Positions 19,245 to 43,571 of a stretch of 45,419 nucleotides of DNA are shown here, in pieces. The stretch's first letter is position 1, and every line of letters begins with the position of its first letter. The position numbers and the translations under genes are program-made. The notes under the pieces are model-generated. The model had not been told where the DNA came from. It searched no databases and saw only the letters and a list, made by a program, of their open reading frames with translations. The stretch comes from a bacterium (GTDB lineage Bacteria > UBA9089 > UBA9088 > JAGUXG01): NCBI GenBank assembly GCA_043798435.1, contig JAZDOR010000128.1, positions 1 through 45,419 of the forward strand, read 5' to 3'.

Positions 19245-19928
19245 CTAAAACTTATGCCCTGTCACCATTAGTATTCCAACCCCAATGATAAGCGTGCCAC
19301 TTATGATGGAGATGAGCCTGAAATACCTCTTTATCTTCTCTATAGACGAAATGAATGTGCCCAGTGCCAGGCTGGTCAGAATAAACGGCAGACCCAGCCC
19401 TAATGAATAGAAGCTCAACAGGATAACGCCTTCAGTAACCTTCTCTTTTGTGGCGGCAAAGCCAAGGATTGTGCCCAAGATAGGATCAACGCAGGGTGTC
19501 CAGCCAAAGGCAAAGGTAAAACCTAAAAGGAATGAACCCAGTAAATTTTTGGGGATTTTTGTGAGATGAAACCTCTTTTCAGTCTGGAGAAACCTTATAT
19601 TGAATATCCCCAAAAGATGCACGCCAAAGATGATGATTACCGTGCCTAATATCAGCCTGAGTATCCTCTCATAACCCAGGATAAACCTGCTGAGATAGGT
19701 AGCCGAAGCACCCAATGAGATAAAGACAGAGGAGAAACCAAGCACAAAGAAGATTGCACTTAGCAGAACCTTTCCCAAAGCCTTTTTCTTAGCCTCTGTC
19801 TCAGTCAATTCATTTATAGATAGCCCCGAGATAAAGCTGAGATATAGGGGAATCATCGGCAGGACACAAGGCGAGAGAAAAGACAACATCCCGGCAAAAA
19901 AGGCAACAAAGAGAGAAATATCTTTCAT
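19245..19928 (-). CDS. ccdA: Cytochrome c biogenesis / thiol-disulfide transporter CcdA (DsbD family)
   Basis: Six predicted TM helices. FLSPCVLPMIPLYLSFISG and GWTPCVDPILG motifs. Confidence 0.88.
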   Translation of the reverse strand: MKDISLFVAFFAGMLSFLSPCVLPMIPLYLSFISGLSINELTETEAKKKALGKVLLSAIFFVLGFSSVFISLGASATYLSRFILGYERILRLILGTVIIIFGVHLLGIFNIRFLQTEKRFHLTKIPKNLLGSFLLGFTFAFGWTPCVDPILGTILGFAATKEKVTEGVILLSFYSLGLGLPFILTSLALGTFISSIEKIKRYFRLISIISGTLIIGVGILMVTGHKF

Positions 19929-33041: not shown

Positions 33042-33590
33042 CTACTGGCTTTCTCTGTGGATACATATCCAACTTTCCACAAGGTAGCAGGATAGTAATC
33101 CTATAATTCTTAAAGTTTCTAAATCCCCTTGCTGCTGATTCATCTGTTGAATTTTGCTGTTTATCCCCTCGGCTACAGCATTTGTTATTCTATGTTTAAG
33201 ATAGGTTAAAATATTATCAAGATGTCTTTTTATCATTATTTGCTATAGGTTTGAGTCGGGAATGTGTTGCCCACCAGTACCACTTCTTGAAGAAGTTCCT
33301 TGCAGCCTTTTCATATGTATATTTCCATAATCGCAGAAATATTTTCTTTATTGTCCATGCACGACCTACTTTTAGCTCTTTATTCTTTAGCTCCCCAAAT
33401 GCCTTTTTCTGCTCTTCTGTCCAGTTGCAAGGGTTGGTTAGCCATAGATACCTTGTGCCTTTAAGGATGTCTACTCCTTCTTTTCTTAAGCTTCTATTTT
33501 CTTCCTTATCTTACCTTGTCTATAGTTATTGCCACTTTTTCCTTAGTCATTTGAACTGGAAATCTAAGTAGTGGTTGTTCAACCAGGAAA
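33042..33590 (-). pseudogene. Degraded C-terminal part of an ISL3-family transposase
   Basis: Minus-strand frames give FHVQMTKEKVAITIDKVR*, LKGTRYLWLTNPCNWTEEQKKAFGELK...RAWTIKKIFLRLWKY...FFKKWYWWATHSRLKPIA, then (frameshift) MIKRHLDNILTYLKHRITNAVAEGINSKIQ, then (frameshift) LDMYPQ. There are several stops and frameshifts, and no N-terminal half. Confidence 0.75.
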
Positions 33591-35925: not shown

Positions 35926-35940
35926 TATATAAGTTAATTT

Positions 35941-36024
35941 GCCGAGGTGGCGGAATTGGCAGACGCATCGGACTTAAAATCCGCTGAGGTTTTCCTCGTG
36001 TCGGTTCGACTCCGACCCCCGGCA
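35941..36024 (+). tRNA. tRNA-Leu (TAA)
   Basis: Class II tRNA. Acceptor GCCGAGG/CCCCGGC (one A-C mismatch), anticodon loop CTTAAAA, long variable arm (GAGGttttCCTC), T arm GTCGGTTCGACTCCGAC. No encoded CCA. Confidence 0.88.
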
Positions 36025-36030
36025 GTAAAA

Positions 36031-36094: not shown

Positions 36095-36166
36095 TGCGGG
36101 GTGGAGCAGTGGTAGCTCGCAAGGCTCATAACCTTGAGGTCACAGGTTCAAATCCTGTCCCCGCAC
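36095..36166 (+). tRNA. tRNA-Met (CAT), initiator-like body
   Basis: TGCGGGGTGGAGCAG...GCTCG...CTCATAA...GGTTCAAATCC..CCCCGCA closely parallels E. coli tRNA-fMet. However, the anticodon stem has only two G-C pairs next to the loop, and positions 1-72 form U-A. Confidence 0.8.
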
Positions 36167-36195
36167 CCTTTTTTTGTAACATTAAGAGAAAAACC

Positions 36196-36340
36196 GTAAT
36201 CGCTGCGGTAGTGTAATAAAAGGGGATATGGAGATTAAGGAGATAAGGGGATAAAATTTTGAATTAAAAATGAATTATCTCCATATCTTTTCTTATCTCC
36301 TTATCCCCTCACACTTTTGATGTATAGCCTGAACGGTTAC
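36196..36340 (-). repeat. Class-1 word-hairpin element (ggagataagg core), inverted paralog of 11998-12158
   Basis: gtaatcgctgcggtagtgtaa ... ggagattaaggagataagggg ... ccttatcccctcacacttttgatgtatagcctgaacggttac. Confidence 0.85.
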
Positions 36341-36438: not shown

Positions 36439-37038
36439 ATGGAAGAGAAGGTAAACACAAAGGCAGACTTGATAAGGCTATTTTTCCTGTATTCTGCCAT
36501 CTCTATCCCTGTGGTGAATAGCAAGAAGGAGATTGCCGGCTTCCTCTCAAAGCAGGATATAATCGCCTCCTCTGGGATGATGGAGGATTTGAATATGGGG
36601 ATACAAAGGGTGATTGAGCACCACTTAAATACTGTTGACCGAGAGAATATTAACTCACTCAACCTTCTTCTCCAAAACTTCAGCCGAACAAAGAAAATTC
36701 CAGTCATAGACCAAAAGGGCAAGATAATTGACACCTGGCAGAGGGGACAGCTTATATCTGCCTGGGAGGGAGAAGAGGAGACAAAATACCCTGATTTATT
36801 TGATAAACTCTTGGTTGGTGTGGTCGTGACTGATGCCTCTGGAAAGATAGCCTATCTCAACCCCGCGGCTGCCTCTATGGCGACTGAAAAAGGAAAAAAG
36901 AAGGGAAGGAATCTCTCTGAGGTCTTCCTTGTAAATTTAGAGTCAGAGCCTGTCTTAAATAAGAGAGTAAGCGGTCTAATATTTGATGCCGCACCTATGG
37001 TGGATGGTGTCATATACATTATCAGAAAGGCTGAATGA
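36439..37038 (+). CDS. CBS-pair plus PAS-like domain protein
   Basis: Two CBS-like units (ISIPVVNSKKEIAGFLSKQDII; KKIPVIDQKGKIIDTW), then a PAS-like N-cap (LLVGVVVTDASGKIAYLNPAAASM). Confidence 0.55.
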   Translation: MEEKVNTKADLIRLFFLYSAISIPVVNSKKEIAGFLSKQDIIASSGMMEDLNMGIQRVIEHHLNTVDRENINSLNLLLQNFSRTKKIPVIDQKGKIIDTWQRGQLISAWEGEEETKYPDLFDKLLVGVVVTDASGKIAYLNPAAASMATEKGKKKGRNLSEVFLVNLESEPVLNKRVSGLIFDAAPMVDGVIYIIRKAE

Positions 37039-37110: not shown

Positions 37111-37180
37111 TATATCAAAACTGAAAACTATGCTTGCCAAACAAACAATAAATACTTAAACTGAAGGTTATAAGGTTATT

Positions 37181-38914
37181 ATGATAACAAAGCTATTTAT
37201 TCACAATTTCAAACGGCTCAGGGATGCGGAAATCCCTTTGGGTAAAACAGTTGTGTTTATCGGTCCCAATAATTCTGGAAAAACTACGGCGTTACAGGCG
37301 CTAACACTCTGGGATGTAGGCATACGCGCGTGGAATGCCAAACGCAAGGGAAAGTCCTCACCTGCAAAACGGCCCGGAGTTACCATTAACCGCCGGGATC
37401 TGATCTCAACATCAGTGCCTGTGGCTAATTTGTTATGGTATGGGTTAGACACCCGACGTAGCGTAAAACTTGGCATGCAAAACATCCGCATTGACATTTC
37501 TGTTTCTGGAGTGACTAAAGGCAAAGAGTGGAATTGTGGTTTAGAATTTGATTTTACTAACGACGAATCGTTTGTCTGTCGTCCCTTGCGCTTGCCAGAA
37601 TTCAAGGATGTTCCTGTAACGAAAGCGGAGTTCTCCGAGATTCCAGTCGAAGCGTCAAACATCCGATTCGCCTTTTTACCCCCTATGTCAGGGTTGACAG
37701 ATAGGGAGTTTGTCAAGGAACCTGGTGAGATCGGAGTGCTTATCGGTCAGGGGCAAACAGCCCAGGTTCTACGGAATCTCTGTCACCTAATCTATAAGAA
37801 TAAGGATTCAGCACACTGGGTTAATCTGGTGAAGCACATCCATAGCTTATTTGGTGTGGAGCTTTTGGAACCACAATATATCGCCGAGCGCAGCGAAATC
37901 ACTATGGCTTACAAGGATGAGCAAGAAAAGAAGCTTGACCTTTCTTCATCAGGCCGAGGACTGCAACAGACATTGCTCTTGCTCGCCCACCTTTATGCCA
38001 ATCCTGGGGCAGTGCTACTCTTAGACGAGCCGGATGCCCACCTGGAGATTCTGCGCCAGCGACAAATTTACAACCTCCTGATTCAAGTTGCCAAGCAGCA
38101 AGGCTCACAGATTATCGCAGCCAGTCATTCGGAGGTTGTCCTCAACGAAGCTGCTGATAGGGATGTGGTCATTGCCTTTGTTGGCAAACCTCATCGTATT
38201 GATGATCGTGGTTCTCAAGTTTTGAAGGCACTGCAGGAGATTGGCTTTGACCAGTACTATCAGGCGGAACAAACTGGTTGGGTGCTCTATCTGGAAAACT
38301 CCACAGACCTGGCCATTCTTCAGGCATTTGCTAAATCTCTTGGTCACGATGCACAGCCATACCTTGAGCGTCCCTTTGTGAAGTATATTGAAACCAATCT
38401 GCCCCAAAAAGCCCGCGACCATTTTTTCGGTTTACAGGAAGCCAAGAATGATCTTATAGGCATCGCTATTTTTGACCACCTTGACAAGGAGCTTCAGTCT
38501 GACAGAGGACTTACCGAGACAATGTGGCGGCGTAAGGAAATAGAAAACTATTTTTGTATGGAAGATGTGCTATTCGCCTATGCCAGATACGATTTGCCAG
38601 ATGATTTGTTCGGAAATGTCGAGAGCCAACATAGAGAAGAGACAATGCGTAATGCCATTACTGAAGTGACGAAGGCGATGAAGACTCTCGACAAGCCTGA
38701 TCCCTGGTCTTCGGAAGTCAAGGCAACAGATGAGTTTCTTGACCCGCTTTTTAAGAATTACTTCCATAAACTCGGACTGCCGTTGCAACTACGAAAATCC
38801 GATTATCACATCCTTGCCGGTTTGGTGCCGAAGGAAAAATTAGACACGGAGATCACGGAGAAACTTGACACCATCGTGGCTATAGCTGAGAAAGCAAAGC
38901 CGAGGACGGAGTAA
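37181..38914 (+). CDS. ABC/SMC-type ATPase fused to a Toprim/DUF4435-like C-terminal domain (OLD-family or fused-PARIS-like defence candidate)
   Basis: Walker A GPNNSGKTT, signature-like LSSSGRGLQQ, Walker B VLLLDEPDAHLE, H-loop ASHSE. C-terminal VLYLENSTDLAILQ, IFDHLD, WRRKEIENYF. GC content and Arg/Ala codon choice (CGC/CGG, GCC) differ visibly from the neighbouring genes. Confidence 0.65.
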   Translation: MITKLFIHNFKRLRDAEIPLGKTVVFIGPNNSGKTTALQALTLWDVGIRAWNAKRKGKSSPAKRPGVTINRRDLISTSVPVANLLWYGLDTRRSVKLGMQNIRIDISVSGVTKGKEWNCGLEFDFTNDESFVCRPLRLPEFKDVPVTKAEFSEIPVEASNIRFAFLPPMSGLTDREFVKEPGEIGVLIGQGQTAQVLRNLCHLIYKNKDSAHWVNLVKHIHSLFGVELLEPQYIAERSEITMAYKDEQEKKLDLSSSGRGLQQTLLLLAHLYANPGAVLLLDEPDAHLEILRQRQIYNLLIQVAKQQGSQIIAASHSEVVLNEAADRDVVIAFVGKPHRIDDRGSQVLKALQEIGFDQYYQAEQTGWVLYLENSTDLAILQAFAKSLGHDAQPYLERPFVKYIETNLPQKARDHFFGLQEAKNDLIGIAIFDHLDKELQSDRGLTETMWRRKEIENYFCMEDVLFAYARYDLPDDLFGNVESQHREETMRNAITEVTKAMKTLDKPDPWSSEVKATDEFLDPLFKNYFHKLGLPLQLRKSDYHILAGLVPKEKLDTEITEKLDTIVAIAEKAKPRTE

Positions 38915-38945: not shown

Positions 38946-40115
38946 ATGAAAATATGGAAAAGTTTATCAGGAAAAATAGAAGGGAGTGTTATCACCTCCG
39001 GGATATTTGACGGCATTCATATTGGCCATCAAACCTTGATAAAGAAGACTGTAAAATCTGCCAAAAAAAGGGGTATTCCCTCTATCCTTCTCACCTTCCA
39101 TCCACATCCAAGGTCTGCTCTCTTTATCCTTGCCGAAAAGGAGAGAGAAAGGCTTATTGAAGAGCTTGGGATAGACATAATGCTCTACTTAGACTTTAAT
39201 GAGATAAAAGACCTTCAGCCAGAGAGGTTTGTCCAAGAGATTCTTATAGAAACCCTTGGTATGAAAGAGATATGGATAGGCTCCGACCATAGGTTTGGAA
39301 AAGCTCAGGAGGGAGATGTAGGGCTACTCCGTAAGCTCTCTGGCAGATATGATTTTGAGGTTTTCTGTATGAGTGATGTCATTTTAGAGAATGAAAGGGT
39401 GAGCAGCTCTAAGGTAAAAGAGCTTTTGGCTTCTGGCAGGATACAAGAAGCAGAAAGGCTTTTGGGAAGACCATACACTGTGAATCTTCCGGTAATAAAG
39501 GGTGCAGGCAGGGGAAAGGGAATGGGTGCCAAGACAGTAAATATGGACTGGCCAGACATTTTTCTCCCAAGGCTTGGGGTCTATGGTGTGAAGGTGAAAA
39601 TAGTCCACAGTCAACAGTCCACAGTCCACAGTGAAGAGGCAAAAATAGTCAATAGTCAACAGTCAATAGTCAATAGACAGCAGAATACAGAATACAGAAT
39701 ACAGAATACAGAATACAGTAAAGAAGAGAGTCAACAGTCAACGGTCAACAGTCCACAGTCAACGGTCAATAGTAAAGAAAAGGAGACTATGGACAATGGA
39801 CTATGGACTATGGACAATTTTGATGGAGCTGAGCTTGATGGGATAGGAAACCTTGGAAGAAGACCCACATTCTCTGAAAACGAGCTCCTCTTTGAGGTTC
39901 ATATCTTCGGGTTTTCTGGAAATCTTTATGGAAAAAACCTTTCTGTCCAATTTTTAGAGTGGATACGGGATGAGATAAGGTTTTCCAGCAAAGAAGCCCT
40001 CTCTGCCCAGATCAAGAAGGATATAGAAAAACTTGCCAGAAGAAGGGGTGATATAGTATCCTATGGGGGTTGCGCCTGTGGCTCAATGGAAGAGCAACGG
40101 ACTTCTAATCCGTAG
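38946..40115 (+). CDS. ribF: Bifunctional riboflavin kinase / FMN adenylyltransferase carrying a 73-codon repeat-derived insertion
   Basis: FAD-synthetase half (GIFDGIHIGHQ, LTFHPHP). Kinase half (GRPYTV...G.GRGKGMG..T.N...GVYGV ... GNLGRRPTF...FEVHIF.F.G.LYG..L.V.F...IR.E.RF). Interrupted at 39600-39818. The 3' end overlaps tRNA-Arg. Confidence 0.88.
   Translation: MKIWKSLSGKIEGSVITSGIFDGIHIGHQTLIKKTVKSAKKRGIPSILLTFHPHPRSALFILAEKERERLIEELGIDIMLYLDFNEIKDLQPERFVQEILIETLGMKEIWIGSDHRFGKAQEGDVGLLRKLSGRYDFEVFCMSDVILENERVSSSKVKELLASGRIQEAERLLGRPYTVNLPVIKGAGRGKGMGAKTVNMDWPDIFLPRLGVYGVKVKIVHSQQSTVHSEEAKIVNSQQSIVNRQQNTEYRIQNTEYSKEESQQSTVNSPQSTVNSKEKETMDNGLWTMDNFDGAELDGIGNLGRRPTFSENELLFEVHIFGFSGNLYGKNLSVQFLEWIRDEIRFSSKEALSAQIKKDIEKLARRRGDIVSYGGCACGSMEEQRTSNP
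39600..39818 (+). repeat. In-frame word-repeat insertion inside ribF
   Basis: agtccacagtc / atagtcaatagtc words, then cagaata x5, then agtcaacRgtc words, then gactatggac words (approximate reverse complement of gtccacagtc). 219 bp = 73 codons with no stop. Encodes VHSQQSTVHS...NTEYRIQNTEY...MDNGLWTMDN. Confidence 0.85.
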
Positions 40116-40146
40116 GTTGACCGTTCGAGTCGGTCCAGGCGTACCA
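40072..40146 (+). tRNA. tRNA-Arg (TCT) with encoded CCA
   Basis: Acceptor GCGCCTG/CAGGCGT, D arm GCTCAATGGAAGAGC, anticodon arm ACGGA-CTTCTAA-TCCGT, T arm GACCGTTCGAGTCGGTC, discriminator A plus CCA. Confidence 0.88.
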
Positions 40147-42009: not shown

Positions 42010-42043
42010 CTTTACCTCCCATATGCAATCTGATAGATAGCTC

Positions 42044-42155
42044 GATATAAATAGAACACGGATAACGCTGATGAAATGGATAAACACGGATTTTTATATT
42101 TTAATCTGTGTAAATTCGTAGTATCCGTGTCATCTGCGTGCTATTATCTCTTATT
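42044..42155. repeat. 112-bp cacggata/tatccgtg element upstream of hemB
   Basis: gatataaatagaacacggataacgctgatgaaatggataaacacggatttttatattttaatctgtgtaaattcgtagtatccgtgtcatctgcgtgctattatctcttatt. Paralogs at 43336-43445 and 43461-43571. Confidence 0.85.
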
Positions 42156-43294: not shown

Positions 43295-43335
43295 AATTTG
43301 TAAAATTATATATGTAATCCGATATAGATAACTTA

Positions 43336-43571
43336 ACATAAATAGCACACGGATAACGCTGATGAAACGGATATTCACGGATTTTTATATTTCATCTGTG
43401 TCCATCCATAGTATCCGTGTCATCCAAAGTGCTATTCTATTTTAAGCCATCATTGAAGTTGACATAAATAGCACACGGATAACGCTGATGAAACGGATAT
43501 TCACGGATTTTTATATTTCATCTGTGTCCATCCATAGTATCCGTGTCATCTGCGTGCTATTATCTCTTATT
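43336..43571. repeat. Two tandem copies of the cacggata/tatccgtg element upstream of the radical SAM gene
   Basis: Copies at 43336-43445 and 43461-43571 are nearly identical over about 95 bp (acataaatagcacacggataacgctgatgaaacggatattcacggatttttatatttcatctgtgtccatccatagtatccgtgtcat). Confidence 0.9.

Follow-up and report, generated by a model that had tools for sequence, protein, structure and literature searches.

A horizontally acquired single-gene ABC ATPase-Toprim fusion as a candidate anti-phage nuclease of the OLD/PARIS superfamily

The 45,419-nt contig JAZDOR010000128.1 (assembly GCA_043798435.1), which was analysed at its full length and is called the window below, contains a complete open reading frame (ORF) at positions 37181..38914 of the forward strand that starts with ATG and encodes a protein of 577 aa, in which an ABC ATPase is fused to a Toprim-like nuclease domain and a helical tail. 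We consider it reasonably probable that this protein is a single-gene nuclease of the OLD/PARIS superfamily, with a two-metal Toprim active site regulated by the ATPase, which was acquired horizontally and which, by analogy with studied systems, would act in anti-phage defence of the abortive-infection type. Its motifs and structural models suggest that it has the build of an OLD-family nuclease, the family being taken broadly. Position, strand and start codon are exactly those of the original prediction, and all of the peptide strings quoted there are present in the translation. The reading frame is intact, and residue 1 lines up with the N-termini of 65 homologues in the alignment, which supports the start codon.

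The N-terminal part, residues 1-345 (37181..38215, forward strand), is an ABC/SMC-type ATPase domain, as had been proposed, and is recognised by the Pfam models AAA_21 (E = 1.5e-20) and AAA_15 (E = 2.4e-20). It contains a Walker A motif, GPNNSGKT, at residues 28-35 (37262..37285; the longer string GPNNSGKTT covers residues 28-36), an ABC signature, LSSSGRG, at residues 254-260 (37940..37960), a Walker B motif with D-loop, LLLDEPDAHLE, at residues 279-289 (38015..38047), and an H-loop, ASHSE, at residues 314-318 (38120..38134), all on the forward strand, as are the other protein features given below. Conservation at the level of at least 94% was scored over 52 diverse members that share 37-61% identity with the window protein; 62 positions reach it, every catalytic motif being represented among them, with G28, G33 and K34 in Walker A and G258, G260 and Q263 in the signature region. 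D282, E283 and D285 of the Walker B and D-loop segment and H316 of the H-loop are conserved as well. Because its motifs are maintained at this level across the 52 members, the ATPase is very probably catalytically competent. The best PADLOC matches are the ATPase parts of defence systems, namely NsnB of Menshen (3.1e-26), AriA of PARIS (6e-23 and 1e-21), mad3, AbiLi, GajA, Old and PtuA, each of them aligned through the ATPase part alone.

Family members vary most at residues 141-160 (37601..37660; majority-residue fraction 0.17), and next at residues 81-100 and 201-220, all three in the ATPase insert, and at residues 461-500, which follow the Toprim core. These four segments are candidate surfaces for specificity, and residues 141-160 may be a surface that senses the trigger. 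Residues 166-201 (about nt 37676-37783), with the sequence FLPPMSGLxDREFxKxPGEIGVLIGQGQTAQVLRNL, are among the best conserved in the family, M169, G171, E176, G189, G191, L197, R198 and N199 all reaching at least 94%. Residues 168-191 are also the lowest-confidence part of the full-length model, with a pLDDT score (predicted local distance difference test) below 50, and the segment may be ordered only in an oligomer or upon ligand binding.

The C-terminal domain has a Toprim-like core at residues 366-470 (38276..38590), with strands at residues 367-371, 402-404, 426-431 and 444-448 and helices between them. Built with a diverse alignment of 42 sequences, the AlphaFold model of this domain has a mean pLDDT of 96.3 and a predicted template-modelling score (pTM) of 0.91. 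The modelled core has the order beta-alpha-beta-alpha-beta-beta, in which E372 follows strand 1 and D432 follows strand 3, which is the Toprim layout, and we regard the Toprim fold of this domain as modelled with high confidence. The first Toprim motif, LYLENSTD, occupies residues 369-376 (38285..38308; VLYLENSTD is residues 368-376) and includes the conserved E372 and D376, and the second, IFDHLD, occupies residues 430-435 (38468..38485) and includes the conserved D432, right after strand 3. The acidic motif E-N-S-T-D had been singled out as unusual. This is correct for the Gly-to-Asn replacement, which is confined to the subfamily of the window protein, and not for the family as a whole, whose consensus L-Y-L-E-G-x-T-D has the canonical form E-G-x-x-D. 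A further conserved segment, WRRKEIENYF, is found at residues 449-458 (38525..38554), more specifically W449, E453, E455, N456 and Y457, which are at least 94% conserved, and it aligns to positions ~490-544 of the PADLOC AriAB profile. The domain ends in a helical region, residues 471-577 (38591..38911), with long helices at residues 476-502, 515-531 and 556-571 and conserved E557, L562 and D563; by analogy with AriB, it is possibly a dimerisation module.

Among known nucleases, the domain resembles AriB of PARIS most closely. When the model of the domain alone was compared with the PDB using Foldseek, the single significant match was 8ux9_A of the PARIS complex (E = 6.7e-4, probability 0.95), a chain of 306 residues that we assign to AriB by its size; AriB in 8v46 comes next, then GajA and Thermus OLD (E ~0.3, non-significant). 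Profile searches point the same way, since 12 of 42 C-terminal slices from the family weakly match the PADLOC model AriAB (best E = 5.6e-7, at positions ~490-544 of 694, in the Toprim half of the model) and two match AriB, one of them collinearly with positions 2-108 of 236. Every other PADLOC model is matched by at most one of the 42 slices, and the Old and GajA models by none. The predicted similarity of the C-terminal domain to Toprim nucleases of the AriB type is thus borne out by fold, structure match and profiles. The metal-binding residues of AriB are E26, D30, D88, E90 and E122 (Burman et al., PMC11464382), and the offsets of E372, D376 and D432 from E26, D30 and D88 are 346, 346 and 344, a correspondence of spacing only: D432 comes 60 residues after the first Glu, and D88 of AriB comes 62 after. 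E453 and E455, in the motif W-x-R-x-E-I-E-N-Y, are candidates for the remaining metal ligands, as judged from the sequence. With the full-length model, the Foldseek matches that include both domains are Thermus scotoductus OLD (6p74, E = 1e-12, 650 columns), GajA (8u7i, 8sm3 and 8x5i, ~660 columns) and retron Eco8, and PtuA, SMC heads and other ATPase-only proteins match the N-terminal half alone.

A HMMER search of 1.84 billion cluster representatives identified 737 proteins (50%-identity clusters) that carry the C-terminal domain. In the full-length matches, which are ~550-630 aa long, the domain is C-terminal, and it therefore appears specific to one architecture; no stand-alone AriB-like form was found among the 737, the shorter matches looking like fragments. 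Counting one genome per species, at least 581 genomes encode a relative, and these belong to many bacterial phyla and include one metagenome-assembled genome of Bathyarchaeota. Full-length relatives whose length is nearly constant (573-598 aa) are 69-77% identical to the window protein and are labelled Acidobacteriota, Planctomycetota, Methylococcaceae, Nitrospira, Syntrophales, Hydrogenedentes and others. Source databases call the relatives 'AAA family ATPase' or mislabel them as ABC transporter ATPases, and the C-terminal domain of the window protein, searched alone, has no domain match in Pfam (E <= 10) or PADLOC. With the thresholds of Pfam DUF4435 and OLD-like_TOPRIM not reached and HEC-04 absent from the PADLOC matches listed, we treat it as a family of its own, and the suggestion of a divergent or new single-protein variant is plausible.

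We clustered the neighbours of the homologues in 77 non-redundant loci in order to see where the gene resides. At 20 of these (26%) the gene lies inside a restriction-like operon, and at the rest it is solitary. A Res-like helicase of ~1,000 aa is found upstream at 10 loci, an N6_N4 methyltransferase downstream at eight and a PLD-SNF2 helicase at eight, and any other neighbour recurs in at most four of the 77. In individual cases the gene stands between a Res-like gene and the gene of a 1,279-aa methyltransferase, or between dxs and mraZ. The original prediction had asked whether homologues sit in conserved housekeeping contexts, which they do not: a Pfam scan of the 138 immediately flanking proteins gave 145 families, of which DNA methylase and ResIII are the commonest and the remainder are unrelated housekeeping enzymes. 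We observe, then, a gene that moves singly between unrelated genomic sites and phyla.

Two of the operon settings deserve description. In a DUF499/DUF3780/DUF1156 operon, seen on at least six contigs, a homologue with 70% identity (P0099) stands between the DUF1156 gene and the PLD-SNF2 gene; the identical protein occurs in 68 blocks of the collection, of which 24 contigs were read. In this Hma-like operon (loci L004-L009, e.g. L004 1122-13527), there are two adjoining cassettes, the ATPase-Toprim gene and an MNT-HEPN pair (NTP_transf_2 plus HEPN), and a Schlafen/AlbA_2-HATPase gene and then DUF2130 come after the cassettes. The other setting is BREX-1, where a distant relative (26% identity, E = 3e-22, the alignment spanning the Toprim motifs) lies between pglX and pglZ. 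This relative, of 625 aa, is encoded at L174 5001-6878 on plasmid pNsp_c of Nostoc sp. ATCC 53789, with a HEPN-domain gene upstream. Its C-terminal domain has 20 homologues, some of which UniRef names 'ATP-dependent nuclease'. We considered it as a bridge to DUF4435 and rejected it, the match being at E = 0.043 and the 20 homologues carrying no Toprim or DUF4435 annotation. A position within operons of restriction, BREX and Hma systems is also the pattern that has been validated for defence genes such as HEC-04.

No conserved small partner ORF was found downstream of the gene at the homologue loci; the sole cluster is an out-of-frame reading of the shared Mod gene. At many loci (L001-L004 and others) the called upstream ORF ends 7 nt inside the ATPase-Toprim gene. 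As inferred from the protein consensus, this overlap may be a by-product of a Met-Leu-Thr start (ATG CTG ACN, with an out-of-frame TGA), in which case it mimics translational coupling. It is absent in the window copy, which starts with Met-Ile-Thr.

The gene of the window is compositionally foreign and has been acquired horizontally. Its GC content is 0.469, compared to 0.410 for the window, and 0.1% of equal-length windows get that high; the earlier description as GC-rich is therefore valid relative to the window and overstated in absolute terms. At third codon positions the GC content (GC3) is 0.49, compared to 0.39-0.44 in most neighbours. The foreign codon choice that had been noticed by eye is pronounced for arginine, the CGN:AGR ratio being 25:7 in the gene and 91:386 in the 24 remaining long ORFs (Fisher p = 8e-12, odds ratio 15), and it fades for GCC, CTG and TTA, for which the differences between gene and window are small. 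In overall synonymous codon usage, the gene ranks second most atypical among the 25 ORFs of the window. The most atypical of the 25 is a 227-aa ORF at 19245-19928 on the reverse strand, with a GC3 of 0.52, which may be another foreign gene or may not be a real gene.

The mechanism that we propose takes PARIS, OLD, Gabija and HEC-04 as its models. The ATPase would sense an infection cue, possibly a phage anti-restriction protein, a trigger that we put forward because the gene often nests in restriction, Hma and BREX operons. ATP binding or hydrolysis would then unleash the Toprim nuclease, autoinhibited in cis until that point, and the nuclease would cut host tRNA in the manner of AriB, or DNA in the manner of OLD, so that phage growth would stop and the cell would be arrested. 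tRNA is, by analogy, somewhat the likelier of the two substrates, given that the nuclease domain is AriB-like. Since sensor and effector share one chain, activation would have to occur by conformational change or oligomerisation, unlike in two-gene PARIS. One might go further and see here a compact OLD-like class, in which an ATPase devoid of coiled coil and an AriB-type Toprim act in cis as a one-gene sentinel for modification-based immunity (type III-like restriction-modification, Hma, BREX), sensing anti-restriction factors, cleaving tRNA and spreading as a naked gene with no recognisable integrase, repeats or attachment (att) sites. We offer this extended proposal tentatively and think it rather unlikely to hold in all its parts.

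Several observations weigh against a role as an AriB-like defence nuclease. The TM-scores of the domain to AriB, OLD and GajA are low, at 0.26-0.35, so that the relationship must be distant, and one Foldseek match in the PDB, no more, is significant. A comparison of the C-terminal model with viral structures (BFVD) gave nothing significant, and a family-profile search of this domain against PDB sequences returned chance matches only (Fic proteins and a colicin immunity protein, E >= 0.16). The original prediction had likened the domain to the DUF4435/OLD nuclease module, and as regards membership in the Pfam models this did not hold, no threshold being reached: DUF4435 (PF14491) is matched by none of the 42 C-terminal domains at E <= 10, and OLD-like_TOPRIM (PF20469) is not matched by the window protein at E <= 10 and gives sub-threshold matches for two of the 42 members, the best at 1.7e-4. 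A counterpart of AriB E90 is not obvious, as D-H-L-D stands in place of D-x-E. No member of the family occurs in 50,697 phage records, and among 72,556 plasmids it is represented by remote relatives only, of at most 26% identity. Within the close subfamily the mean column identity across phyla is 78%, which is atypical for a fast-evolving sensor, and no vehicle of its mobility is recognisable. The window copy is solitary, with no restriction or other defence gene among the long ORFs of the window. Finally, Cran1, an archaeal OLD-family ATPase, has a non-defence role in the cell cycle.

The strongest competing view is that of a Class 1 OLD-type enzyme, which would nick or degrade phage or host DNA instead of tRNA, with ATP hydrolysis tuning the cleavage; we hold this to be possible but doubtful. 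Under this view, the best whole-chain match to a Class 1 OLD (6p74, followed by GajA) is as expected, a single gene with no conserved partners is the hallmark of Class 1, and the Class 1 OLD of Vibrio is a DNA nickase active in defence (PMC12392090). Three family members also touch OLD-like_TOPRIM, one of which, P0232, scores 20.7 bits compared to a cut-off of 23.2. Nevertheless, the nuclease domain taken alone ranks AriB first and as the sole significant match, leaving OLD and GajA at E ~0.3, its PADLOC matches are to AriAB and AriB and never to Old or GajA, and the conserved W-x-R-x-E-I-E-N-Y aligns to the AriAB profile.

Another view is that of a selfish addiction or toxin module, in which a latent nuclease toxin is curbed by its own ATPase and its loss is costly, with no dedicated anti-phage role. 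That a single gene spreads across phyla and is very highly conserved in sequence would suit such a module, as would the company it sometimes keeps, namely the YafQ/RelB and PemK/MazE toxin-antitoxin pairs at locus L001, where the homologue stands beside them, and the MNT-HEPN pair at L004; the Pfam label of AAA_21 itself reads 'putative AbiEii toxin, Type IV TA system'. We find it improbable, given that a separate antitoxin or conserved small partner ORF is lacking and that the embedding in restriction, BREX and Hma operons fits the pattern of validated defence genes, and toxin-antitoxin modules and abortive-infection defence are in any case not mutually exclusive. Least probable of all, and in our opinion very unlikely, is a housekeeping ATPase of DNA repair or chromosome maintenance, similar to RecF, RecN and SbcC or to Cran1. 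The patchy spread, with copies of nearly identical length and 70-77% identity in unrelated phyla, the absence of a conserved neighbourhood and the foreign codon usage all speak against it. The profile matches that might suggest it are weak, SMC_N lying under its Pfam cut-off (39.1 compared to 40) and RecF far under (28.8 compared to 172), which leaves in its favour the housekeeping flanks in the window, the possible co-transcription with ribF in a region with no terminator found, and the archaeal precedent of a cell-cycle role. The anti-phage nuclease of the OLD/PARIS superfamily therefore remains the reading that we prefer.

In the window, the gene is preceded by a 142-nt spacer, which follows a 199-aa gene at 36439-37038, and followed by a 31-nt spacer before ribF (38946-40115), whose ORF bears FAD_syn and Flavokinase domains. 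A sigma-70-like promoter match, TTGCCA-17-TAAACT, is located at 37134..37162 on the forward strand, 19 nt before the start codon, as a match to the consensus only, and it is followed by a putative ribosome-binding-like sequence, AAGG. No terminator was found after the gene, which may be co-transcribed with ribF. The setting had been given as a CBS/PAS gene and ribF with short spacers, of which ribF and the spacers are confirmed; the CBS match of the 199-aa ORF (E = 6e-4) is under the Pfam cut-off, and no PAS domain was found in it by the Pfam scan. We considered this weak-CBS gene, with a GC3 of 0.505, as a co-acquired partner and rejected it because no such neighbour recurs at the other loci. 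A 1.9-kb contig from a second sample has the same junction (the weak-CBS gene, 142 nt, then MITKLFIHNF...), so that the arrangement is not an assembly chimera.

The surrounding ORFs encode prephenate dehydrogenase, DAHP synthase, RibF, DUF6901, ALAD, a radical-SAM/SPASM protein, NusA, GlmS, a PBP and others of this kind. Judged by its NusA, the host lies near Candidatus Desantisbacteria, with 92% identity to a fragment that bears this label and at most 58% to the matches that come next. The gene is located in a tRNA-rich stretch, with tRNA-Leu(TAA) (35940-36025) and tRNA-Met(CAT) (36095-36168) ~1 kb upstream, and tRNA-Arg(TCT) (40072-40146) overlapping the final 44 nt of the ribF ORF, whose stop codon ends at 40115. 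No terminal inverted repeat, target-site duplication or tRNA-derived att repeat came to light in a search around the gene. In a comparison of insertion sites, the ribF relatives in metagenomes are at most 38% identical, close relatives of the host, identified through NusA (83-92% identity), differ in gene order, no other record contains the exact DUF6901 neighbour, and the sole contig found with the same junction is that of 1.9 kb.

Some further features of this region were noted. A 64-aa ORF at 33042-33236 on the reverse strand, ~4 kb upstream of the ATPase-Toprim gene, is a remnant of an ISL3-family DDE transposase (E = 2.7e-8), which matches just positions 192-225 of the 240 in the model. 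An imperfect long inverted repeat lies in non-coding DNA between tRNA-Met and the weak-CBS gene (36216-36309), with arms AGGGGATATGGAGAT and ATCTCCTTATCCCCT that are 93% complementary; a 20-nt pair is nested in it. The riboflavin-kinase half of ribF contains an in-frame insert of ~70 aa (39596-39812) made of degenerate AGTCAAC/AGTCCAC-type repeats (a 52-nt family present four times, plus 14-nt tandem units), which encodes 'SQQSTVHS...QQSTVNSPQSTVNS', and the Pfam Flavokinase model of 124 positions is spread over RibF residues 173-363. A non-coding repeat of ~115 nt is found at 42039-42153 and 43330-43444, with a partial copy at 43456-43520 and a 65-nt core of 86-97% identity. The copies lie directly upstream of the ALAD (hemB-like) and radical-SAM/SPASM genes, with the third, partial copy 126 nt on, and they account for the spurious N-terminal extensions with a common 'FISVIRVLF..SYL' in the mechanical ORF list. 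This repeat may serve both genes as a regulatory region, or it may be a small repeat element.

ABC-ATPase/Toprim pairs, as in OLD, Gabija, PARIS, HEC-04, AbiL and MADS, belong to the most widespread immune modules of bacteria, and those studied experimentally come from enterobacteria, Bacillus, Vibrio and their phages. The family of the window gene is common in uncultured, poorly studied environmental phyla. Defence inventories of these lineages may miss it, because its nuclease domain went unrecognised by the Pfam and PADLOC models that we ran. The kind of system is already known, as are validated fused forms, and no new principle is involved; what is new is a plausible variant, an unnamed branch of anti-phage proteins in the OLD/PARIS group. 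It might provide a minimal system to understand how a PARIS-like sensor controls an AriB-like nuclease on one chain, with no release of an effector. If the link with operons does reflect guarding against anti-restriction proteins, it would be a further example of 'anti-anti-restriction' immunity.

Compared with known systems, the window protein differs from Menshen in that the match to NsnB covers residues 1-324 only, i.e. the ATPase, and the partners NsnA and NsnC are missing at the window locus, where the neighbours are the weak-CBS gene and ribF; at the homologue loci the recurrent partners are Res, Mod and SNF2 alone. In PrrC and RloC, an N-terminal ABC ATPase controls a C-terminal nuclease; the gene classically resides in a restriction-modification operon, and a phage anti-restriction factor acts as the trigger. 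The nuclease domain of PrrC is not known to be a Toprim. The embedding of family members recalls this arrangement, in the form Res-X-Mod, although no PrrC or RloC model is among the top PADLOC matches of the window protein. Gabija GajA (OLD class 2) shares the ATPase and Toprim in one chain and gives strong whole-chain structural matches, but the PADLOC GajA models match the Walker A region alone, and a GajB/UvrD-like helicase is neither adjacent in the window nor recurrent at the homologue loci.

In PARIS, which is OLD class 4, the anti-restriction protein Ocr is sensed by the AriA ATPase, which then sets AriB free; AriB forms a dimer and, as a two-metal ribonuclease, nicks tRNA-Lys in its anticodon stem. 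Two clades of merged ariAB are on record, and the original prediction had noted that fused forms exist. [quoted passage not shown] Nevertheless, it is ~117 residues shorter than this model of 694 positions, its ATPase is not predicted to have the long coiled-coil or helical-bundle insert of PARIS, Pfam DUF4435 is undetected in the 42 members, and the release of an effector from an AriA hexamer cannot apply to a single chain. P2 Old and PARIS, furthermore, are carried by phages and satellites, unlike this family, which was not found on phages or satellites.

Class 1 OLD proteins, like Gabija, have the ATPase and Toprim on one chain and act on DNA. The window protein follows the Class 1 plan of P2 Old and of the Thermus scotoductus and Vibrio cholerae enzymes, a single chain of ~510-590 aa with the ATPase preceding the Toprim and no obligate partner, consistent with 6p74 being its best whole-chain Foldseek match; it departs from this class in that the PADLOC Old model matches the ATPase N-terminus alone and in that the Toprim alone reaches only E ~0.3 to 6p74. 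HEC-04, an ABC ATPase-Toprim fusion embedded in Hma, protects E. coli from phage and needs both its Walker A and its nuclease residues, and its homologue IbfA, a 518-aa protein borne on plasmids in enterobacteria, aborts P22-like infection. The HEC-04 model is not among the 25 best PADLOC matches of the full protein (all E <= 1.5e-9), nor among the PADLOC matches of the 42 C-terminal domains, and, unlike IbfA, the family is chromosomal and found in uncultured environmental phyla. It does share with HEC-04 and IbfA a one-gene ATPase-Toprim fusion that nests in an Hma-type operon, as seen for P0099, although the window copy is not embedded. All in all, the family is best described as a distinct and apparently unnamed branch of the ABC-ATPase/Toprim defence superfamily, nearest to AriB in its nuclease domain and nearest to Class 1 OLD and merged PARIS in its overall organisation.

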